A stretch of DNA of 64,000 nt. Origin: a phage. The notes beneath the pieces were generated by a model, which saw only the letters and a program-made list of their open reading frames with translations, was not told the origin of the DNA and ran no database searches. The position numbers were made by a program, and so were the translations under genes. Location of the stretch: the sequence record PV467749.1; one strand, 5' to 3'. Below, piece by piece: positions 16,323 through 40,959 of this stretch. The stretch's first letter is position 1. The number at the start of each line of letters is the position of its first letter.

Positions 16323-17420
16323 TTACTTAAAAGTATTTACAATTTCTAAAACACTTTCAAGATACTTAGCATCAAAAGTTTCAGTAAATCCTGATGGCAA
16401 CTCTTCAGTACTTACCACACCACTTTCAATGTATTTCTTTATGAACTTTTCCAACAGTAATGGTTGATTGCCATCTTCAAAGTAGCGTTCTATAAGTACT
16501 TCATGCTCGAACTCAGAATTGCGGCTTTGTTCGTTAACACGGCGTTTCATATCACCAGTGATCCCATATTTGTACACCGTCTTGTTATTGTTAGTTAGTT
16601 TTTGTACATAGAAATATCCAGGTTTTGATGGTTGATATCCATATTCACCACATGATGGACATCCTTTACCAGCCATATGTGCTTTTGGTTGTTGGGAGAA
16701 GACACCATGAGTCGGACATACAATATCAATATAATTCTCGCTTAAAGTATATTCAACCAAGCTATAATCATACTTATGGTTATGGATAGGCGACACAAGT
16801 TCAATGAAACGTTCAGTGCTTCTTCCACCTTTACCAGAACATGTACCGCAGCCAGTTTTACCCTTCAATAAAGTTTGGGCTGAAACAGTCCATTCGTGTT
16901 TACCGCGTGTGCAATATACGGTAACTTCCGTTTTATTGTTAACATATTTGGTATTTGGAAATTCAAACGCACCACCATAGTTTTCTTTTACTTTTGCGAT
17001 GAATGATTCAGTACTGTATGCTTCATTTTTATTACAGACAGGACATCCCCTACCAGAAAGAAATTTGTTTGGTGTAATTTCAAAGTAATCGTTATGGTCT
17101 TCATCAGTGCAAAATAGTGTTACTTTTGTTATAGCGTTAGTGTAATTTAGTTTATCAAATTTGAATTTATCTTTACCAAATTTAGTTTCTACAGTACTGA
17201 TGAATGTGTCGTTGTTTGAACGCTGTGACATGTTTGAATAACATGATGCACATGTACATGCAATGTGACGAAGTGCAGACTTGGTGTTTTCTTTCCCACA
17301 CTTGTTACATTTTACTGTTGTTTTACTTGCCTTGAATACTAAAGTACTGAAGTCAAATTCTCCATACTTAGCAGTCATTTGGTTAATAAACTCTTCTTTG
17401 TTGATACTTACGTTTGGCAT
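16323..17420 (-). CDS. homing-endonuclease-like protein: tandem Cys/His zinc-ribbon modules + C-terminal GIY-YIG/T5orf172-like nuclease domain
   Basis: About four repeats of the module (K)YDYSLVEY-x8-IxCPTHGxFxQxPxxHxxGKGCPxC, then GYFYVQKL...VYKYGITGDMKRR...TETF resembling a GIY-YIG/T5orf172 domain; own consensus promoter; sits between capsid gene and downstream genes. Confidence 0.6.
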   Translation of the reverse strand: MPNVSINKEEFINQMTAKYGEFDFSTLVFKASKTTVKCNKCGKENTKSALRHIACTCASCYSNMSQRSNNDTFISTVETKFGKDKFKFDKLNYTNAITKVTLFCTDEDHNDYFEITPNKFLSGRGCPVCNKNEAYSTESFIAKVKENYGGAFEFPNTKYVNNKTEVTVYCTRGKHEWTVSAQTLLKGKTGCGTCSGKGGRSTERFIELVSPIHNHKYDYSLVEYTLSENYIDIVCPTHGVFSQQPKAHMAGKGCPSCGEYGYQPSKPGYFYVQKLTNNNKTVYKYGITGDMKRRVNEQSRNSEFEHEVLIERYFEDGNQPLLLEKFIKKYIESGVVSTEELPSGFTETFDAKYLESVLEIVNTFK

Positions 17421-23626: not shown

Positions 23627-25825
23627 TTAACTGTTTCTCTCACCTTGGGTGTTTTCAGAGATAGTTCTTAGATAATTATTTGTCTGTTGTACAGCAGATA
23701 GTGATTGTTCATTAACATCGGCAAGCTTTTTGAGTATTTCTTTCATTTCATCAGAAATCGGTGCTGGTGGTCCAGTTCTCGATGTCACTGCACTACCATT
23801 ATTTATCATCTTCTTAATTGCCTCTGTATCGTCAGGTTTTGGCGGTACTGGTGGTTCACCTGGTGCCCATGCAGTTTTATCAAAATCTTTACGAGATACA
23901 GTTATTTCTGGAGCAACGTTATTGGTTTTTTCAATAACAGGACGAATACGTTCTACTCCTGGACGGTTGAATAAACTGTCAGCATAATCAGATGGTAGTG
24001 GTTTTGGTTCTTTGTAGTTACGTGAGGTGTTCCATTTGTTGAACTTATCCCACATCCCTGCAAAATAATCACTAACACTATTTACACCGTTGTCAATGAT
24101 GTTGTTTACGCTTTCTGCTGGGGTTTCAGTACTGTTATTGAGTTTTATATCATTATCAGAACCACCACCGAACCAACTTTTAACAGAATTCCATAGGTTA
24201 CCAGGTAAATCCATTAAGTTATTCATAAAGGTATCAAATGCTTCTGACACTTTAGAGTAACCTGAACCGAATATATCTGCACCCAATCCATCCAACCAAG
24301 CTGTAAATTCAGCACCAATACGATCAAGGTAAGCAATTGCATCTTTAGCAATAGGTACTAACCCAAATCCATCAAGAGCCAATTCCCCAATAAACTCCCA
24401 TGCACCATCAGTTCTGTCTGCAATGTCTGAAAGATAATCCACAATTGAATTTTGTGTATTAGCATACATTGTATTAAATGGTTCAGTGAATTCTTTACTA
24501 ATCCACATATTGAAGCGGTTAGTAAATTGAGTTAATTTATCAGCGGGATTATTTTTAGGTTCATTTACGGTTGCTTCCATATCCAATAGTTGTTGGTAGA
24601 AGGTTGCAGCAGTTGTGTTTCCTAATTGAATCTGGTTAAGCAAATCTTGCTTAATTAATTCTTTATTCTTTTTAACGAATTCTAATTGTTGGCGACGAAT
24701 TTCTTGTGAATCAGTTACCCCACTACGTACAAGATTTTCACCTAAATCAGCGAACTGGTTCAGTACTGGAGTGAGTAGGTCATCCGGTACGCCACCAATA
24801 GACAATCTGTGTGATATCAAACGGAGGAAATCTGCACCTGCATCACCCATTGCACCCGCAGCTTCGTTGAACGCCTTAGATGTTGCTACAGCAGCTTTAC
24901 TGGATAGTCCAGAGTAGTTCTGCAATGCAATTTGCATAGAACGCGTATCGAGTGATTTATCTAGGTTTTGTGTTTTGTTTAGTAATGCATCTACGGATTC
25001 ACCCATGCTTTTACTGAATTTAGTCATGCTCATGATGAATTGTTCAGTACTTTTAGCTTGGTCCATACTACGAAGAGCTTCACGACCACCATATTGTTTT
25101 TGGAACTTAATGTTTCTTGCAGTTAAATCAGTTAATGTTTTTTGAGAAATACCATAAAGGCCAAGTTCATTTTGAGCTTGTTGAACAGTTCCTAATAATT
25201 TACCAAAGGTAGCAACACCATCACCATATGCACCATCCAATTGAGCTACTACAGAACTATGTGTTTGTAGAGCTTCACTGAATGCATCCATACTCAACAT
25301 AGATGCACCTGCACCTTTCAGTACTGAGCCATAACCTTCAGCCAATGCAACACCAGCACTGTTAATTCTGGTATAAACTTCCAATTGTGCATTAAGGGCA
25401 TTGTATACCGCAAGACCAGCACCAGTAACGAGTTTAAACGCTGCTGCCGCTGCACCAATTGGACCTGGCATCATTGCTAATGAACCAGCAAATGATGATG
25501 CACTAACGCCTAATGAGTTTACTACAGTACTTACGTTGGTACTGGAGTTCATCATTGTTTTGCTTACATTAGAAACTTCAGAAGATAGTGATTTGAACAA
25601 TTTACCAAATGCTTTCCCATCATCGGCTTGTGCACTTCCACGATTTCCACGATTACTGGAAGAACTGGAACTGGAACCATTCTTTTTACTATTTGAACCT
25701 GATTTTTTCTTATCATTCTTTATATTTTCAGCTAATAACTCACGGATAGCAGTCAAACTATCATTGTTATCTTTAGTTTGATTAACCAACTGCTGTAGTA
25801 GGTAATCACTTGTATTGACAGCCAT
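23627..25825 (-). CDS. putative tail tape-measure / large helical virion protein (733 aa)
   Basis: Long low-complexity helical protein with Ser-rich N-terminal stretch; ATG 25825 with AAGGGAA RBS (track ORF extends upstream over likely non-coding sequence); CATAAATA-like motif upstream. Confidence 0.4.
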   Translation of the reverse strand: MAVNTSDYLLQQLVNQTKDNNDSLTAIRELLAENIKNDKKKSGSNSKKNGSSSSSSSNRGNRGSAQADDGKAFGKLFKSLSSEVSNVSKTMMNSSTNVSTVVNSLGVSASSFAGSLAMMPGPIGAAAAAFKLVTGAGLAVYNALNAQLEVYTRINSAGVALAEGYGSVLKGAGASMLSMDAFSEALQTHSSVVAQLDGAYGDGVATFGKLLGTVQQAQNELGLYGISQKTLTDLTARNIKFQKQYGGREALRSMDQAKSTEQFIMSMTKFSKSMGESVDALLNKTQNLDKSLDTRSMQIALQNYSGLSSKAAVATSKAFNEAAGAMGDAGADFLRLISHRLSIGGVPDDLLTPVLNQFADLGENLVRSGVTDSQEIRRQQLEFVKKNKELIKQDLLNQIQLGNTTAATFYQQLLDMEATVNEPKNNPADKLTQFTNRFNMWISKEFTEPFNTMYANTQNSIVDYLSDIADRTDGAWEFIGELALDGFGLVPIAKDAIAYLDRIGAEFTAWLDGLGADIFGSGYSKVSEAFDTFMNNLMDLPGNLWNSVKSWFGGGSDNDIKLNNSTETPAESVNNIIDNGVNSVSDYFAGMWDKFNKWNTSRNYKEPKPLPSDYADSLFNRPGVERIRPVIEKTNNVAPEITVSRKDFDKTAWAPGEPPVPPKPDDTEAIKKMINNGSAVTSRTGPPAPISDEMKEILKKLADVNEQSLSAVQQTNNYLRTISENTQGERNS

Positions 25826-25970
25826 AACATTCCCTTTTAATAGATGTATTATAGAAATATTTATGAATCTATAACGAATAAAAAAGACCCATCTATAACA
25901 TTTGTCCAATTTGTCCCATTTTTTGGTAATAAATACTACAGAGACATTTATTACATGGAGATTTAATAAA

Positions 25971-26807
25971 ATGGCAATGAACCCACTAGCTAAGTATACT
26001 AAAATTGAAGAACTTGGTACAAAATTGGTCACAAATGGCGTGATTCCTTATAAAGAAGGAGTTCTTGGCTCTAAAGGTATCAAATGTGGCATTTGTGCTC
26101 GTAGTGCACGCGATGAAATGACACTCAATACACCAGATATGCTTCTAAATGGTGATGCAATTGCTCGTGTTATTGAAAACTGCGTACCTAACGTACTTGA
26201 TGCAGATGAACTTTATGTAAATGACGTAGAGCAACTACTTATCGCTATTAAAGTAGCTTCTAAAGAAGAATCATATGATATTAATGTGACATGTCCTGAA
26301 TGTAACAAAGAAGGCCGTTTTGAGCGTAGCTTATCATATCTACTAGAAACAGCACATACTTTCAGTGAAGTTCCTACTGTACAATTGGATAATGGACTAA
26401 GTTTAGAGTTTAGACCACTTACTTGGAAGGAATATTCTAACTTCGCAGAAAGAATGTTTACAGAACAACAAAAAACTAAATTCCTTGAAACTGCCGAAAT
26501 GGAGCAGGAAGAAAAAGTTAAAGTGTTTGGTGAAGTATTTGAAAGTATGGCACAACTCAACTTTGATATGATCGCAGGAGTTATTGCTAAAGTAATTACT
26601 CCTGAAGGTGATGAAGTAACTGAAAACGAATTCATTTCTGAATGGCTAGGTCAGCAGTCCAAAGGAACACTTAAAATAATTCGTGAAAAAATGGATGAAG
26701 TACTTGAAATTGGTGTTTCCCATACTATGGAAGTTGAATGCAGTGACTGTAATCATCAATGGGAAATTAATGGACTGAAATATGACCCAAGTCATTTTTT
26801 CGCATAA
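25971..26807 (+). CDS. hypothetical protein with two CxxC zinc-ribbon motifs (279 aa)
   Basis: ATG 25971 with GGAG upstream (track ORF starts at TTG 25902); CGIC...CPEC and CSDC motifs. Confidence 0.6.
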   Translation: MAMNPLAKYTKIEELGTKLVTNGVIPYKEGVLGSKGIKCGICARSARDEMTLNTPDMLLNGDAIARVIENCVPNVLDADELYVNDVEQLLIAIKVASKEESYDINVTCPECNKEGRFERSLSYLLETAHTFSEVPTVQLDNGLSLEFRPLTWKEYSNFAERMFTEQQKTKFLETAEMEQEEKVKVFGEVFESMAQLNFDMIAGVIAKVITPEGDEVTENEFISEWLGQQSKGTLKIIREKMDEVLEIGVSHTMEVECSDCNHQWEINGLKYDPSHFFA

Positions 26808-27016
26808 TGCTTCTCCACTCATCTCCTGAAGAAATACAAGAAGTACTTAAGGAATTTGAGTTGAATAAGTCAGATATTAAAACTGCATTAATGGAGTGTT
26901 CTGTTTATATGGAAAGTGTTGATTACGGAACACTACTTAATATGCCACTAATTGATAGAGACTTATTAGTTAAGTCTTTTAATAAGAAAATTAAAAAACA
27001 AAACGAGAAGCACTAA
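26807..27016 (+). CDS. hypothetical small protein (69 aa)
   Basis: Start overlaps upstream stop (TAATG); followed by a strong terminator. Confidence 0.45.
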   Translation: MLLHSSPEEIQEVLKEFELNKSDIKTALMECSVYMESVDYGTLLNMPLIDRDLLVKSFNKKIKKQNEKH

Positions 27017-27025
27017 CTCACAAGG

Positions 27026-27054
27026 AGCCAGCACATTGTTGCTGGTTTTTTTTT
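27026..27054 (+). terminator. rho-independent terminator (stem CCAGCA/TGCTGG, T9 run)
   Basis: Hairpin followed by nine T residues immediately after the 69-aa ORF. Confidence 0.8.
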
Positions 27055-27055
27055 G

Positions 27056-27854
27056 GTTTTAAACTACAGAATTGATTGAATTGAATTATGAAAGGAATTA
27101 ATTATTTTATAGTGAACTCATCTAACTCATTTCATTCGTTAGCTGAAGAATATTCGTTACTACGTAACTCATATTCATTTCTTATAATTAATTATAAAGA
27201 ACTTTAAAAGATTTAATACTTGACGGGATTTGTTGAAGACATTTTCATCCCCCCGCAGGGGAATGAAGACAATAAAAAAGAGACAATTAAGTCTCTTAAT
27301 TCTTGACGCTGATGGTTTCAGCATTTATTGTATTGCGAATTTCTTAAAATTCATTAAGAACGAAAGCGGGTTGCTCTGTTTCTCTCTATCGCAGTCATGT
27401 GCAACGGTCGTCAGTCTTAATCATCCTGACACTCACCTGAAAGTCTATACAATCAAACTTCAGGCTGTTTATTAAATCACTTAATAAACTCCCTTAGCAA
27501 ATCTGGTAAGGTGCGATCCTTATACATCTATCGAGGAACTCTCTGTATGCTTATCGGAGTTCTTTATTGAGCCGTGTCGCCGTGAGGGGTTCAAACTATG
27601 CCCACATCTAACGGGTTTCTTCTGCTCATCGCACTGTTGAACTGCTCATCTGCCATCTACATTTTCGATAGGATCAGGTTCTAATTTATATGCATTTCTG
27701 CATTCAACAGGATTGTCATCACTACAATTAACATTATAGCACCAAATTCAAAAGTGTCTCACTATTATGATAAAAAATTTATAAAAAGTACATAATTCTT
27801 GAACATTGAAGTAACGCATAAATATTTTGATAAGAATTAGTTTAGTGGGGATTT
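27056..27854. other. 0.8-kb non-coding island; core (about 27230-27720) noticeably more GC-rich than surrounding genome; function unknown
   Basis: No ORF over 81 aa in any frame; stops in all frames; local GC about 48-50% versus about 38-40% elsewhere; strong hairpin TTCATCCCC-CGCAG-GGGGAATGAA at about 27246-27269; TTGACG repeats; no tRNA cloverleaf found by eye. Confidence 0.4.
27071..27180. repeat. cluster of short direct repeats (ATTGA x3; AACTCAT x3) in AT-rich spacer
   Basis: ATTGATTGAATTGAATT at 27071-27087 and AACTCAT at 27115, 27124 and 27166. Confidence 0.35.
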
Positions 27855-28340
27855 ATGAAGAAAAGATTAAAAGATAGTAAAGAAGCTGCAAACTATCGAA
27901 ATGAATTACTAAAGAAGCAAAAAGGAATTGATCCTATAATTAAGGAACCAATAACTAAGCCAGTACTTGATCACTATCACTTCGAGAATCAACATTGTCG
28001 CGGAGTACTCCAGAATGAGATAAACGCCTTTGAGGGTAAGGTTTCCAACGCATGGAACCGATATGGAAAGCATTTAACTGATATGCCATTACATGAAGTA
28101 CTAAGAAACCTTGCAGATTATCTTGAAAAGAACAATAATATCCCACTGGAAGAACAGGTGATTCATCACACGGCACTAACTGTGGATGTAAACAAGTTTA
28201 AAAGGCTCCCTGCAACGCGTCAGAACGAGATATTGGGGTTATGCGGTATAGAGCCATTACCTAATACAAAAGAACGCTCAAAGAGAGCTAGAGAGCTTAT
28301 TAAGAAAGGAATTCTCAATATAAATGAATACAAAAAATGA
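27855..28340 (+). CDS. endonuclease VII-like nuclease (T4 gp49 family), Cys-poor variant
   Basis: VLDHYHFENQHCRGVLQNEINAFEG parallels the T4 endonuclease VII catalytic core (LDHDHELNG...RGLLCNLCNAAEG) but the zinc-ligand cysteines are replaced; GGGGA RBS. Confidence 0.6.
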   Translation: MKKRLKDSKEAANYRNELLKKQKGIDPIIKEPITKPVLDHYHFENQHCRGVLQNEINAFEGKVSNAWNRYGKHLTDMPLHEVLRNLADYLEKNNNIPLEEQVIHHTALTVDVNKFKRLPATRQNEILGLCGIEPLPNTKERSKRARELIKKGILNINEYKK

Positions 28341-29028
28341 TATTTTTATAGATAAAGCAAATATAAAACATAACAACAAATATGAATATACATTAGTTGA
28401 GTATGTAAATAATTACACTAAAGTTAAAATTATATGTAAGAAACATGGTATGTTTTCACAAACTCCAAATCACCATTTAAAAGGAAGTGGATGTAATGAA
28501 TGTTACTTAGAAAGCAAGCACGATACTAAAGATGACTTCATAAAAAAATCCATGAAAGTTCATGGTGAATTATATGATTACTCAAATGTGATATATAAAT
28601 CTTCAAAGAAAAAAGTTGAAATTATATGCAATAAACATGGTTCTTTTTATCAGAGGCCACATGAACATATATCAGGTAAAGGTTGTTCAGAATGTGGAGT
28701 TGGTGGTTACAAGAGAAGTAAACCAGGTCGTTTATATGTATATGAAGTTTTACAAGACGACAAAACTATAGCATACAAATACGGAATAACTAATGGTACT
28801 ATTAATAATAGAAAATATTACCATGAGTATCACTCTAACTTAAAATTTAATTGTGTTTATGAACTATATGATGAAGATGGTAATGTTCCATATAATATAG
28901 AAAAAGCAATAAAAGCTGGCATGAAAAGTGTTTTTTTATCAAAAACTATTTTAGAAGTTGGGTATACCGAAACGATAGAACCGTCTTTATATGAAGATTT
29001 GATTAATATAATAAAAAAAGGGAGCTAA
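28324..29028 (+). CDS. homing-endonuclease-like protein: two Cys/His zinc-ribbon modules + GIY-YIG/T5orf172-like domain
   Basis: Modules KYEYTLVEY...IICKKHGMFSQTPNHHLKGSGCNEC and LYDYSNVIY...IICNKHGSFYQRPHEHISGKGCSEC, then GRLYVYEV...AYKYGITNG...NNRKYYHEY (GIY..YIG..R); overlaps Endo VII-like gene by 17 nt. Confidence 0.6.
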   Translation: MNTKNDIFIDKANIKHNNKYEYTLVEYVNNYTKVKIICKKHGMFSQTPNHHLKGSGCNECYLESKHDTKDDFIKKSMKVHGELYDYSNVIYKSSKKKVEIICNKHGSFYQRPHEHISGKGCSECGVGGYKRSKPGRLYVYEVLQDDKTIAYKYGITNGTINNRKYYHEYHSNLKFNCVYELYDEDGNVPYNIEKAIKAGMKSVFLSKTILEVGYTETIEPSLYEDLINIIKKGS

Positions 29029-29044
29029 GGCTCCCTTTCCTTTT
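29013..29044. terminator. bidirectional terminator (A-run, GGGAGC-TAAG-GCTCCC, T-rich) between convergent genes
   Basis: 6-bp GC stem whose loop contains the stop codon of the + gene; flanked by A7 and TTTCCTTTT. Confidence 0.7.
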
Positions 29045-29046
29045 AA

Positions 29047-31194
29047 TTAGAAAACATCATCCAGAGTTGTATACTCAACAGTACTGAAACCATCCTCTTT
29101 AACTACTTTTAGGATTTTCTCAGTCTTAGAAAGCAATTCTTCTCTGTGAGAAATGGCATATACATTCTTACCACGCACAGCAGCCATATCTTGGAAGATA
29201 GACCACACGCGAAGAACACCACTTGAATCAAGACCTTGGTCAATCATCTCATCAATGATAAGAATATTGATACTTTGATACAATGACTCATATGTATCAC
29301 GGAAAGCACAAGATAAAGCAATGTTTACCCTTGTACGCTCACCACGACTAAGCTGTTTATAGTCAAAGTACTGACCACTTTTCTCAATTTCTACACTCAA
29401 ATCATTCAAGAACACAACATTATGTTCAGAACCACACATATCAATGTAATATTGAAGACGTGTATTCAGATACGAAATGTTTTGTTCAATAATACGCTTA
29501 CGGACATAAGAATCCTTGTTTAACAACAATTTAACCAAGAAATCTTGGTGATTTGCCATCTTATCAAGGTTATTATAGTCACTATAGTCGATTGGTACTA
29601 ATGAATCGGTCGTAAGTGTATTAATTTGTCCAATAAATGTGTTAGTAGTTTTCAATTCACGATCTAATTGCTGTGATAATGAAGTTACTGTCATTTCTAA
29701 CTCTTTTACTTCAGATTTATTCAATGTATCTGGTACTTCTTGAAGAACATGTGCGTTCAGTTCTTCATATGATGACATAAGTTCATTAGCATAGATGTTA
29801 ATTTGCTCTTCTTCACTCTTTTTAATAAGTTCTTGAAGCTTATGCTCATGCATTTGTGCTTCAGTTAGTGTAGAATAGAATGTCACAGGCTTAGGTGGCA
29901 TATCAAAAATCTCAATACTATCAATTTCCTGAAGTATTGTTTCAATTTCAGAAGTGGAACTATCAATTTTCGATTGAAGTTCATTAATAGTATTTTGAAT
30001 TTTATCTTTAATAGACGAAGTATGTTCATTATGTTCTAATTCGGACATACAAAGTGGACATTTACTACTCTCCACTGTTGCTAATTTGTCCACCTCAGCA
30101 CGTAACGAACTCTCATGACCATTTAAAGCCACCTTTAATGCGTTAAGTTTTTGTTCTTTGAAACGTTTTTGGTTATTATTCTCTTTTAGAATACCCTCCA
30201 ACTGTTTCCATATCTCCAACTCATTGTGATTTTCTAATTCAGTACTGATATCAATAGTTTTTAGCTTATCAATACTTACATTTAATGCTAATTTTGCTGT
30301 TGCTAGTTCACGGTCATATGCATCATACTTCAAAGCTAACTCTTGCACACGTCTTTCTATTTGATCACGAGCAGCATTATGAATAAGAGCTTTCTCTTTC
30401 ACTTCTGCCAAATCATAGAGATCGTTGAAGTCTAAAGTTTTGTAGATATTCAATTCTTCAGTCAACTTAGATACTCTATTATTTTTATCAATCTCAAATT
30501 GGTTAGCTTGTTCTTGTAATGATTCAATACTTTTTTGAATACGTTCATTACTTGCAGCCACAGTTTCAATTTTGAACTTTTCTTGTTCAGCTAAACGTTT
30601 AGAATCTTTATACATATCCTTTAATAGTTCAGCTTTCTCTGTTAATTGTGTGATGCCCAGAAGTTCCTCAATCATATCACGTTGTTTCTGTGATGATAAT
30701 GCAAGAAACGGCTCTACGTTAGCATTAAGTACTACAATATGTTCAAATAGTAGTTGAGAAATCCCAAGAATCTCGTTTAGATCTTCTTGTGTATCTTTCT
30801 TCTCCCCTCTTGACTCATCTTCGACCTTATTATCTTTACCTAATGTAATAAAGTTGAAATACGTGGGACTTCTCCCACGCTCGACGAGATATTGTACACC
30901 ATCTTTCTCGAACTCAACAGATACTTCACAGTTTTTAGCATTAGTTTTATTAACTAAGTTTGGAATTTTGATATCGTTACCAATACTTTTTCCAAACAAA
31001 CCAAAAACTAAACCTTGAATGATGGCACTTTTACCAACACCATTACGGCGACCGGAACTATCACCACCTTCAATAACTGCATCATTGTTTTGACCAAGAA
31101 CTAACGATATATCAGCACCAGACAAATCAATTACTTGTGGTGCATTGCCAAATGAAAAGAAGTTCCTCATTGATATACGTGTAATGTTTAGCAC
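29047..31194 (-). CDS. gp46: recombination ATPase, SbcC/Rad50-like (T4 gp46-like)
   Basis: N-terminal P-loop NGVGKS, long coiled-coil with CPLC zinc-hook-like motif, C-terminal QLSRGERTR signature and ILIIDE Walker B. Confidence 0.85.
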   Translation of the reverse strand: MLNITRISMRNFFSFGNAPQVIDLSGADISLVLGQNNDAVIEGGDSSGRRNGVGKSAIIQGLVFGLFGKSIGNDIKIPNLVNKTNAKNCEVSVEFEKDGVQYLVERGRSPTYFNFITLGKDNKVEDESRGEKKDTQEDLNEILGISQLLFEHIVVLNANVEPFLALSSQKQRDMIEELLGITQLTEKAELLKDMYKDSKRLAEQEKFKIETVAASNERIQKSIESLQEQANQFEIDKNNRVSKLTEELNIYKTLDFNDLYDLAEVKEKALIHNAARDQIERRVQELALKYDAYDRELATAKLALNVSIDKLKTIDISTELENHNELEIWKQLEGILKENNNQKRFKEQKLNALKVALNGHESSLRAEVDKLATVESSKCPLCMSELEHNEHTSSIKDKIQNTINELQSKIDSSTSEIETILQEIDSIEIFDMPPKPVTFYSTLTEAQMHEHKLQELIKKSEEEQINIYANELMSSYEELNAHVLQEVPDTLNKSEVKELEMTVTSLSQQLDRELKTTNTFIGQINTLTTDSLVPIDYSDYNNLDKMANHQDFLVKLLLNKDSYVRKRIIEQNISYLNTRLQYYIDMCGSEHNVVFLNDLSVEIEKSGQYFDYKQLSRGERTRVNIALSCAFRDTYESLYQSINILIIDEMIDQGLDSSGVLRVWSIFQDMAAVRGKNVYAISHREELLSKTEKILKVVKEDGFSTVEYTTLDDVF

Positions 31195-31206
31195 AATAAA
31201 TTTCCC

Positions 31207-32238
31207 TTATAGTGATCTGTAAATTTGGATTAGAAGATTTTTATCGAACATAGGTGAATCAATTTCCATGATTTGTTGTAACACAATCTCATCAACTGAC
31301 TCAGTACTTTCAAAGCTTTCACCATCTTCAATAAGTTCTTTGATACTTTGCTTGCTAGTAACAACGTTAAACTCACGAATGTTATAAAGTTTAGTAAAAG
31401 TATCACGAATAAAACTAATCTCATCAGTAGTGATAGCAATATCAACTTGAACCTTTGAAATAGTATTGTCTTGAAGATAATAACTTGGATCTGTTAATAG
31501 TTCTGAAAGTGTAAATGTTCTATATTTTGGTGCTTCTGACCAAGAATGGAAAGTTGGTTCTTTACCATGTTCTAAAATCATCACACCTCTTGCATCATCC
31601 CATGTATCAGAAAAGTTATGTGGGAAACAGTTACCTGTGTAAATTACACGAGTTCCTTTGGATGTTGTTTTTGCTTGTCTCTTGTGGAAATGCCCACTAA
31701 AAACATACTCACAACCACCAAAAGAACCTTCAGTCTCTTTACCATGATCTGGCATCTCAACCATTTTATTGAGCAAGTAGCCAGGTAACTCTAAGTGACC
31801 AAAAACATACTTACTTTTAAGTTGAGGTAGAACTTTGTATTCATCTTCAATCATAAATGGAATGAAAGTACAATCATCAAATGTTGTGATTTCATTAATG
31901 AACTCGATGTTCTCATAAACTTGTGCCATATTAATACTAGTAATGTCACGTTTATTTTTATGATACATGTCATGGTTCCCAACTAAGAAGTAAACCTTAT
32001 CAAAGTTGTCATTTAGTAATTGTAGAATTTGTAAACCATAGTTTAATGTTTGAATGTTAATATTACTGCGGTTATGGAAGTAATCTCCCATAAACACGCA
32101 TACAGTAATACCATTTTTCTTAGCAAGTTCAATCATAAACTTGATGAAGTTCAAACAATCTTCGTTGTGCTGCTTGCTGTTATTCTTTAATCCTAAATGA
32201 ATATCAGTAAATGTAATTGCTTTATCAAATAGAGCCAT
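31207..32238 (-). CDS. gp47: recombination nuclease, SbcD/Mre11-like (T4 gp47-like)
   Basis: Metallophosphatase motifs DIHLG, GDYFH, GNHD; ATG 32238 with AAAGGAAAAA RBS; overlaps stop of gp55-like gene; track ORF uses an upstream TTG. Confidence 0.85.
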   Translation of the reverse strand: MALFDKAITFTDIHLGLKNNSKQHNEDCLNFIKFMIELAKKNGITVCVFMGDYFHNRSNINIQTLNYGLQILQLLNDNFDKVYFLVGNHDMYHKNKRDITSINMAQVYENIEFINEITTFDDCTFIPFMIEDEYKVLPQLKSKYVFGHLELPGYLLNKMVEMPDHGKETEGSFGGCEYVFSGHFHKRQAKTTSKGTRVIYTGNCFPHNFSDTWDDARGVMILEHGKEPTFHSWSEAPKYRTFTLSELLTDPSYYLQDNTISKVQVDIAITTDEISFIRDTFTKLYNIREFNVVTSKQSIKELIEDGESFESTESVDEIVLQQIMEIDSPMFDKNLLIQIYRSL

Positions 32239-40194: not shown

Positions 40195-40959
40195 ATGAAA
40201 TATGCAACAACCAGATCAACAAAATACAAATTTGTAACCAACGCCATTAGAGTGCATGGTATGCGTTATGATTATAGTATGGTTAAATATCATAATGCTA
40301 AAACAAAGGTGTGGATCGGATGTGAGAAGCATGGGTTTTTCCTACAAACACCAAATGACCATACATGTGGCAAAGGATGCATGGAATGCTCGGTTGAGTA
40401 TAATGCGAATCGTCAGAAAAGTCCACAGAACTTTATAAATTTTCTTAATAAGGCTAATTTAAAGTTTAGAAATAAATTTGATTATAGCACAGTAGAATAT
40501 GTTAATAATAAAACTCACATATCCATAATATGCCCAACACATGGGTCTTTTTTACAAAGACCTGATAATCATTTGTCAAGTAAGTATGGTTGTGAGAAAT
40601 GTATGATTGAATCAACGCAATCAAAAGCAGTAACTGATATTGAAAAAATGATATCTTTCACTAATTATGTTAAAGAAAAGCGTTTTGATGATTGTAGAAA
40701 CATATTAACTTTGCCATTTGATTTTTATATTGAAGATTTAAACTTGTGTATTGAATATGATGGTGAACAACACTTTCGATGTTCTGAACATTGGGGTGGT
40801 GACAAATCGCTAAAACAAACTCAACACAATGATAAAATTAAAAACACGTACTGTGCTGACCATGATATTAACTTACTTCGTATCAAATACGATGAAGATC
40901 ATATCATCGTACTAAAAAAGTACTTTTATGATAATTTTAACATAATATTAAAGGATTAA
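40195..40959 (+). CDS. homing-endonuclease-like protein: two Cys/His zinc-ribbon modules + C-terminal PD-(D/E)XK-like domain
   Basis: Modules RYDYSMVKY...IGCEKHGFFLQTPNDHTCGKGCMEC and KFDYSTVEY...IICPTHGSFLQRPDNHLSSKYGCEKC; C-terminus LPFDFYIEDLNLCIEYDGEQH...KIKNTY resembles DUF559/Vsr-like PD-(D/E)XK nucleases; inserted between gp25- and gp6-like genes. Confidence 0.6.
   Translation: MKYATTRSTKYKFVTNAIRVHGMRYDYSMVKYHNAKTKVWIGCEKHGFFLQTPNDHTCGKGCMECSVEYNANRQKSPQNFINFLNKANLKFRNKFDYSTVEYVNNKTHISIICPTHGSFLQRPDNHLSSKYGCEKCMIESTQSKAVTDIEKMISFTNYVKEKRFDDCRNILTLPFDFYIEDLNLCIEYDGEQHFRCSEHWGGDKSLKQTQHNDKIKNTYCADHDINLLRIKYDEDHIIVLKKYFYDNFNIILKD

Follow-up and report, generated by a model that had tools for sequence, protein, structure and literature searches.

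A zinc-site-less endonuclease VII homologue overlapped by a putative T5orf172-type homing endonuclease gene in an Asteriusvirus-like jumbo phage

The DNA analysed here, a stretch of 64,000 nucleotides from sequence record PV467749.1 (the window), is Asteriusvirus-like jumbo phage DNA, and its segment 26800–29100 is matched in Escherichia phages EC.P1, BF17, WPEC3, TH47, 121Q, and PBECO4. A first-pass annotation made from the sequence alone had described in this segment an overlapping pair of nuclease genes, one resembling endonuclease VII (Endo VII) and one resembling a homing endonuclease gene (HEG), and both reading frames exist as described. The locus comprises the following features:

27855–28340, plus strand: ORF A (endoVII), ATG start, 161 aa, by sequence and model a homologue of the T4 gp49-type recombination endonuclease VII, of a zinc-site-less lineage
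27960–28064, plus strand: beta-beta-alpha-Me catalytic core of endoVII, approximately residues 36–70, with D39, H40, H42, R49, N57, and E60
27995–29010, plus strand: putatively imported (co-converted) tract, made up of the 3′ two-thirds of endoVII and the HEG, the sole differing block relative to HEG-less BF17
28324–28340, plus strand: overlap of ORF A and ORF B, 17 nt, the HEG start codon lying within the last codons of the endoVII allele probably transferred with it
28324–29028, plus strand: ORF B, a free-standing putative HEG, ATG start, 234 aa, of T5orf172-family architecture
28324–28698, plus strand: two tandem DUF723/DUF4379 treble-clef zinc-ribbon modules of ORF B, approximately residues 1–63 and 66–125
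28711–29025, plus strand: predicted C-terminal nuclease domain of ORF B, approximately residues 130–234, GIY-YIG superfamily, T5orf172/MUG113 branch
29011–29042, not assigned to one strand: right junction microhomology (ATAAAAAAAGG) and bidirectional intrinsic terminator common to ORF B and the convergent gp46-like gene

Upstream of ORF A lie a gp26-like baseplate hub gene, an ORF of 69 aa that has a terminator of its own (27022–27051), and an 839-nt gap in which no credible ORF was found. The pair lies, as had been noted earlier, downstream of a GC-richer non-coding island, the GC content being 36–43.5% over approximately 27200–27700 against about 27–35% on either side. An ATAAATA element at about 27818–27824, picked out by eye, resembles a T4 late promoter and is a candidate for one. 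The terminator proposed at the 3′ end of the pair is also present, as a stem-loop at 29017–29038 followed by a T run, which may be read on the minus strand as well, and beyond it come the convergent gp46-like (SbcC-type) gene and then gp47. Since neither a terminator nor a predicted sigma-70-type promoter was found between ORF A and ORF B, and the HEG start codon, preceded by AAGGAA, sits inside the endoVII tail, the two genes are likely to be co-transcribed. ORF B is GC-poor, at 22–32% compared with 33–41% in the neighbouring genes. Because both reading frames have many homologues (118 for ORF A, and 329 for ORF B in a word-indexed search), the pair is not a chance pattern.

The island itself spans about 27215–27700 and is 94–100% identical to its counterpart in 121Q, the flanking genes being about 80–89% identical. 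Diverged Rak2-like phages have it at 68–76% identity, each genome matching in several places; a scan with a 25-nt motif gave three to four copies per genome, in orientations that vary relative to the neighbouring genes, and neither BLAST nor a covariance model found a second copy within the window. Folding 23 copies to a consensus gives 56 pairs, of which 25 show compensatory double changes; the share of paired cells is 95.5%, falling to 81% on shuffling and to 40–51% on sliding, and none of 500 shuffles reached its covariation score of 0.413. The A-U/G-U alternation in its long-range helix fits the plus strand only and so points to that strand for the RNA, and a minus-strand reading based on RNAalifold energy was set aside on the same ground. 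A search of Rfam 15 with the island gave no match, and the island does not match the region with the RNA-seq-defined PA5oct ncRNA001 and ncRNA002. It looks, from these comparisons, like an apparently undescribed structured RNA family of about 480 nt with several copies per genome, separate from the nuclease pair. The expectation that pair and island would together be absent from related phages was not borne out: every Asteriusvirus relative examined has both island and endoVII, as do Munch and GAP32, and ORF B alone varies, so that an insertion of pair and island as one unit was rejected too.

ORF A matches the PHROG family phrog_423, endonuclease VII, at E=5.4e-35, and as a single sequence it scores 17.8 bits against the Pfam family Endonuclease_7 (PF02945; E=0.0032), which is below the gathering threshold of 23.6. 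A database search returned 118 homologues, nearly all of them 150–170 aa long and many on contigs of about 350 kb. When a clade profile of 54 homologues was run against the PDB, it recovered the T4 Endo VII chains (1e7d) at E=1.2e-17 over T4 residues 10–143. The AF2 model built on the 54-sequence alignment has a pLDDT of 95.2, and Foldseek aligned it with 1e7l_A over 157 columns (E=1e-6, TM 0.69/0.70). Its sole significant PDB matches are three T4 Endo VII entries (1e7l, 2qnf, and 1en7), which align end to end with TM values of 0.58–0.69 at about 20% identity, the match spanning the catalytic module and the C-terminal helical domain. A phmmer alignment against the PDB equates D39, H40, H42, R49, N57, and E60 of ORF A with T4 D40, H41, H43, R54, N62, and E65, the catalytic residue set of Endo VII being known as 'DHHRN' (PMC6083498). 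The columns of D39, H40, H42, R49, and N57 are invariant in the 54-sequence alignment, and across the homologues the catalytic D, H, H, and N are kept in 118 of 118 and E in 117, which confirms the catalytic core that the first-pass annotation had read from a single sequence.

Sequence and structure model together show ORF A to be genuinely homologous to T4 endonuclease VII (gp49; PDB 1en7, 1e7l, 2qnc; PF02945). The two proteins fall in the same length class (157 aa in T4) and share the full-length fold, the DHHRN(+E) active-site residues, and the kind of part played in the genome, each being encoded by a core gene close to genes for recombination; they differ in their low overall identity and in the zinc ligands discussed below. 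Synteny of the gene holds in all relatives examined, BF17, 121Q, TH47, RaK2, and GAP32 among them, and in Asteriusvirus, RaK2, and GAP32 it keeps its place with the gp26-like hub gene on one side and gp46/gp47 on the other; no second endoVII copy was found within the window. Earlier work had noted a resolvase resembling T4 Endo VII in jumbo phages (PMC7824862), and by analogy with the T4 enzyme ORF A would be expected to have Holliday-junction resolvase activity.

The zinc ligands of the T4 enzyme, C23, C26, C58, and C61, are replaced in ORF A by D26, I29, Q53, and I56, the first two being aligned by the clade profile and the last two by phmmer against the PDB. The loss of the cysteines reported in the first-pass annotation is real, but it is not local to the window phage. 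Among the 118 homologues the C23 position holds D in 113, the C58 position Q in 95, and the C61 position V in 85 and Cys in 16; at the C26 position I, T, or L occurs across the clade, with Cys in one homologue, and the complete set of four (CxxC...CxxC) is found in one member only, the distant P0115. Judged by these counts, the loss is a conserved state of a Rak2-like jumbo phage clade of more than 110 sequences under purifying selection, and the missing Cys4 site is a lineage variant of a homologous family that gives no ground for excluding ORF A from the Endo VII family. The T4 single mutants C23S and C61S are cited in PMC6083498 as being inactive and failing to bind DNA, from which it follows that the zinc site of the Cys-less clade must have been structurally replaced, in a manner that can only be inferred. 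A zinc-free active Endo VII enzyme is plausible from the conservation pattern, though unproven, and the clade-wide loss of ligands of which two are essential in T4 makes these phages a natural experiment in the replacement of a structural zinc site.

The same T4 mutants could be taken to mean that the Cys-less ORF A is a relic, either without catalytic activity or impaired in structure. A relic is scarcely credible, however, given that the active-site residues are invariant or nearly so throughout the homologues, that the D and Q standing in for two of the cysteines are themselves conserved, and that the AF2 model is confident (pLDDT 95). Another reading would make ORF A a site-specific nuclease of homing or defence that carries the DHHRN motif and is no resolvase. 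The Endo VII motif does occur in a homing endonuclease and in the restriction enzyme Hpy99I (PMC6083498; PMC5714182), and the score of ORF A below the Pfam threshold speaks in the same direction. F-CphI of cyanophage S-PM2 (ORF177; PMC6083498) has the D-H-H-R-N catalytic motif, as ORF A does, but it is a site-specific HEG with which ORF A has the catalytic module alone in common, whereas ORF A shows the whole Endo VII architecture. The full-length match of the model to T4 Endo VII, including the C-terminal helical domain, and the fixed synteny beside gp46/gp47 of a gene that has no other copy in the window leave a site-specific nuclease highly improbable, and ORF A is best regarded as the Endo VII-type core enzyme of these phages.

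ORF B matches the PHROG family phrog_681, endonuclease, at E=3.7e-50. Its N-terminal half matches the Pfam family DUF4379 in two stretches (E=1.2e-6) and, in precomputed matches, PF05265 twice. The zinc-ribbon ligands follow the pattern C-x2-H...C-x2-C, as C38/H41...C57/C60 and C102/H105...C121/C124, with C57, C102, C121, and C124 nearly invariant among homologues, and the AF2 model of the full-length protein (pLDDT 95.9) repeats a helix/beta-hairpin/helix pattern. These ribbons are presumed to be the sequence-specific DNA-binding part. Most of the 329 homologues share the N-terminal half alone and continue into a different C-terminal domain, which several sources name a 'very-short-patch-repair endonuclease'. 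Two more HEG-like genes with the same zinc-ribbon modules occur in the window, at 16323–17420 on the minus strand and at 40195–40959 on the plus strand.

The C-terminal domain of ORF B is more diverged. A word-indexed homologue search with this domain alone found nothing, and an exhaustive HMMER search returned 232 cluster representatives; in nearly all of the listed ones the domain lies at or near the C-terminus. Among 47 aligned family members, MUG113 is matched by 21, T5orf172 by 18, and GIY-YIG (PF01541) by two. The domain of ORF B itself has no Pfam match at E≤0.1 and no usable NCBIfam match, and it is 46–52% identical to the closest two positional homologues or family members that do match MUG113/T5orf172. 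Its positional homologue in TH47 matches MUG113 at 1e-5 and T5orf172 at 8e-4, and that in RaK2 matches MUG113 at 2.7e-9, T5orf172 at 3.8e-8, and PF01541 at 0.058. The residues that are invariant in the family (Y16, K30, G32, G64, E71, G91, E94, and T95, in domain numbering) are all present in ORF B, as is the near-invariant R41, and the domain combines a predicted GIY-YIG fold with the conserved Tyr, (K/Y)xG, Arg, and Glu. Comparison of the nuclease-domain profile with PDB sequences yielded nothing real, the real matches coming from fold comparison alone.

The earlier description of ORF B as a zinc-ribbon/GIY-YIG-like HEG holds as far as the HEG-like character and the superfamily are concerned, but the nuclease domain is C-terminal and probably of the T5orf172/MUG113 type. 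In the classical layout of I-TevI and SegA–G, an N-terminal PF01541 domain precedes C-terminal DNA binding; ORF B gives no PF01541 match and has its predicted nuclease at the C-terminus. By domain content and model, ORF B is a putative homing endonuclease of the T5orf172 architecture already described in phages, which consists of repeated CapR/DUF723/DUF4397-type Zn fingers and a T5orf172 nuclease (Barth et al. 2023, PMC10448857; DUF4397 as printed there). As in the T5orf172 HEGs of vibriophage ICP1 and other phages, Zn-finger repeats occupy one terminus and a GIY-YIG-superfamily nuclease the other, and the gene stands between conserved genes where it marks a boundary of genetic exchange. ORF B differs from these HEGs in being short (234 aa with two ribbons), in having a diverged nuclease that misses Pfam T5orf172/MUG113, and in residing in Rak2-like jumbo phages.

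The presence of ORF B varies between close relatives. BF17 is 96–100% identical to the window in every compared 100-nt bin of 24500–32100 outside 27995–29010; clusters of differences are confined to that interval, with a few single-base differences elsewhere. Within it, ORF B is absent from BF17, and the endoVII DNA is 59–70% identical over 28000–28299 (sliding identity), the BF17 protein of 163 aa ending in ...DIKKGS* and the gene reaching the common terminator directly. TH47 has the BF17/window backbone with a different, 340-aa HEG in place of ORF B, and RaK2, which belongs to another genus, has a long HEG of 343 aa at the endoVII site; no HEG follows endoVII in 121Q, BF17, GAP32, and most relatives. 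The short HEG was found in no record among 50,697 GenBank phages. A total of 21 contigs from assemblies or metagenomes encode a 234-aa product protein-identical to ORF B, in each case right after a 161-aa endoVII; they fall into two backbones, some of the contigs having the window/BF17 backbone and others (L004, L005, L006, and L011) a 121Q-like backbone that is about 85% identical.

The boundaries of the transferred segment differ on its two sides. The short-HEG tract in the 121Q-like backbones is near-identical to that of the window (three SNPs), and its left end falls at about 27783 in L004, L005, and L011, at about 27960 in L006, and at about 27995 in the comparison of the window with BF17, while the right end always lies at 29010–29029, that is, at the HEG stop codon and terminator. 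Three left ends, each joining the HEG to a variable length of upstream endoVII, indicate that at least three transfers have been recorded. The C-terminal tail of endoVII changes with the type of HEG, being ...DIKKGS where there is none, ...KRDTK or ...RDQK with a long HEG, and ...NINEYKK-like with the short one; a further contig, L014, encodes a 297-aa three-ribbon relative of the HEG with the same 17-nt overlap and an ...NINEYKK-like endoVII tail, and the long HEGs of TH47 and RaK2 overlap endoVII by ATGA. An A(T/C)AAAAAA microhomology is found at both HEG junctions, and HEG-less endoVII alleles keep the same terminator. Since the tail ...IKKGS* equals the last HEG residues, the empty allele of BF17 was considered as a deletion derivative; the microhomology fits insertion or deletion alike, so that HEG-less alleles may be ancestral or may be precise deletions. 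When a donor was sought for the 3′ segment of diverged endoVII, no sequence outside its own cluster proved closer than 82%.

In intronless homing, a free-standing HEG cuts a conserved neighbouring gene, and repair copies the HEG together with flanking markers (summarised in PMC6083498). As read from these alignments, a variable left boundary inside endoVII combined with a fixed right boundary at the ORF B stop is a homing signature, and the long variable tracts on the left, with none on the right, suggest a cut site in endoVII 3′ of about 27995. The free-standing HEGs SegF, SegG, and MobE of T4 perform intronless homing with marker exclusion. ORF B resembles them in being a HEG between two conserved genes, with a probable cut in the neighbour and a co-converted flank of variable ends; the T4 Seg proteins differ in their N-terminal canonical GIY-YIG domain and C-terminal DNA binding, the order being reversed in ORF B, whose cleavage is putative. 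The pattern also fits the observation that nuclease genes sit at boundaries of genetic exchange (PMC10448857). The proposal that the locus is a mobile unit consequently survives for ORF B with the 3′ part of endoVII, but not for the endoVII core and the island, which are present across relatives.

The first-pass annotation had raised the possibility of a resolvase plus targeting nuclease cassette, in which ORF B would target or nick DNA and ORF A would resolve the product under joint selection. The overlap of the genes, by 17 nt here and by ATGA in TH47 and RaK2, the undivided stretch between them, the occurrence of a nuclease pair at the endoVII site in two genera (Asteriusvirus and Alcyoneusvirus), and the proposal that T5orf172 proteins act in recombination (PMC7824862) all speak for such a unit. 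In 121Q, BF17, GAP32, and most relatives, however, no nuclease gene follows endoVII, another HEG takes the place of ORF B in TH47 and RaK2, genomes that are nearly isogenic carry no HEG, a short one, or a long one, and ORF B is a low-GC gene that moves between backbones, all of which renders a functional cassette very unlikely. ORF B might instead be a domesticated derivative of a HEG that has lost homing and serves as a repressor or as an anti-competitor or anti-satellite nuclease, in the manner of ICP1 Odn or PLE CapR. The ICP1/PLE system offers examples of domesticated proteins of the T5orf172/CapR type (PMC10448857; also PMC8096241 and PMC8263062), and the phage has several paralogues of ORF B. 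This, too, appears unlikely, if somewhat less so than a cassette, as ORF B keeps all family-invariant nuclease residues, is dispensable in close relatives, and is protein-identical in diverged backbones with co-converted flanks, which points to a recent horizontal spread, always into the one site. In principle, such recombination tracts could also stem from ordinary homologous recombination where the locus is divergent, with no cut by the HEG.

The locus is probably made up of two independent adjacent genes, a core Endo VII-type enzyme and a selfish free-standing T5orf172 HEG that homes by cutting and co-conversion. By analogy with T4 gp49, ORF A would remove branches from the intermediates of recombination and replication ahead of packaging; in its lineage D/I/Q/I(V) has taken the place of the Cys4 zinc site, while the T4 fold is kept in full and the DHHRN(E) residues of the active site remain. 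The two zinc-ribbon modules of ORF B would recognise a DNA site that its C-terminal GIY-YIG-type domain would cut. During co-infection ORF B would cut the allele that lacks the HEG, the likeliest place being the 3′ two-thirds of endoVII, and repair off the HEG-carrying genome would copy the HEG along with a variable stretch of the diverged donor endoVII allele, which is presumably cut-resistant.

Both genes fit described families, and the pair as such has little weight for new biology. The Endo VII clade without zinc ligands departs modestly from the known kind and merits biochemical study. Because the mobile tract takes in the 3′ end and stop codon of endoVII, the HEG that is present can be told from how long Endo VII is and how it ends, a point of use in annotation. 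The window with its short HEG, BF17 with none, and TH47 with a long one form a natural near-isogenic series, and together with the same HEG in a backbone about 15% diverged they provide a clean system for studying homing and co-conversion in jumbo phages. More tentatively, and with considerable doubt, the HEG target may lie in the coding region of the putative resolvase itself: the 30–40% diverged endoVII 3′ segment (from about 27995) would then be an immunity allele, rival HEGs (short, three-ribbon, and long) would repeatedly overwrite the DNA-binding/dimerisation half of Endo VII, and homing would drive the evolution of a core repair enzyme. If that were true, endoVII with its zinc-free scaffold would make a tractable system both for the co-evolution of a HEG with its target and for the replacement of a Cys4 site.

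Besides ORF B, the short homing endonuclease gene (HEG) that forms a nuclease pair with the endonuclease VII homologue ORF A, the window carries two further HEG-like genes:

16323-17420, minus strand: HEG paralogue, 365 aa, with several DUF723-type zinc ribbons and a T5orf172-like C-terminal domain
40195-40959, plus strand: HEG-like protein, 254 aa, with two DUF723 zinc ribbons and a C-terminal domain unlike that of ORF B

The 365-aa protein is 36% identical to ORF B over the full length, and its C-terminal domain contains the motifs GYQPSKPGYFYVQKL...YKYGITGD...GFTET. In the 254-aa protein, the zinc ribbons share 42% identity with the N-terminal half of ORF B, while the C-terminal domain, judged by eye, resembles Vsr/DUF559. 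Ribbons of the ORF B type are thus joined to a different C-terminal domain, so that two apparent nuclease types are built on the same DNA-binding modules within one phage. Most database homologues of ORF B also pair their zinc-ribbon modules in that other way.

In phage TH47, which has a long HEG at the ORF B site, the long-HEG tract also reaches into the convergent gp46-like gene, where it takes the place of about 280 nt at the 3' end (window 29029-29311). Identity between TH47 and the window is 73-76% across this segment and 99-100% beyond it, and about 75 C-terminal residues of the encoded SbcC-like protein are changed. Because the tract replaces the 3' end of this gene as well, co-conversion by the long HEG is two-sided, a feature in which the short HEG, ORF B, differs from it here.

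Upstream of the nuclease pair lies the GC-richer island, which shows stronger conservation than the genes on either side and contains a hairpin:

~27215-27700, plus strand: structured non-coding element (the island), about 480 nt
27272-27297, within the island: hairpin GAGAC...GTCTC, showing compensatory changes from phage to phage

The 5' domain of the island gives a covariance-model match at 27301-27468. Diverged Rak2-like jumbo phages (Munch, GAP32, CBB, fHe-Yen9-04, Serratia BF, RaK2, XaC1) hold three to five island copies per genome, in differing orientations and contexts. The consensus structure comprises 56 pairs, 25 of them with compensatory changes; 95.5% of cells are paired, compared with 81% after shuffling, and the covariation score of 0.413 was equalled by none of 500 shuffles. 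The island is a conserved structured element, probably RNA, and A-U/G-U alternation favours the plus strand. The hairpin, absent from some paralogous copies, sits between an A-run and a T-run and reads as an intrinsic terminator on the minus strand; it could be either an internal RNA element or a minus-strand terminator. Neither a search of Rfam 15 nor comparison with the region holding PA5oct ncRNA001 and ncRNA002 gave a match to the island. The element is apparently undescribed so far and more of a novelty than the nuclease pair.
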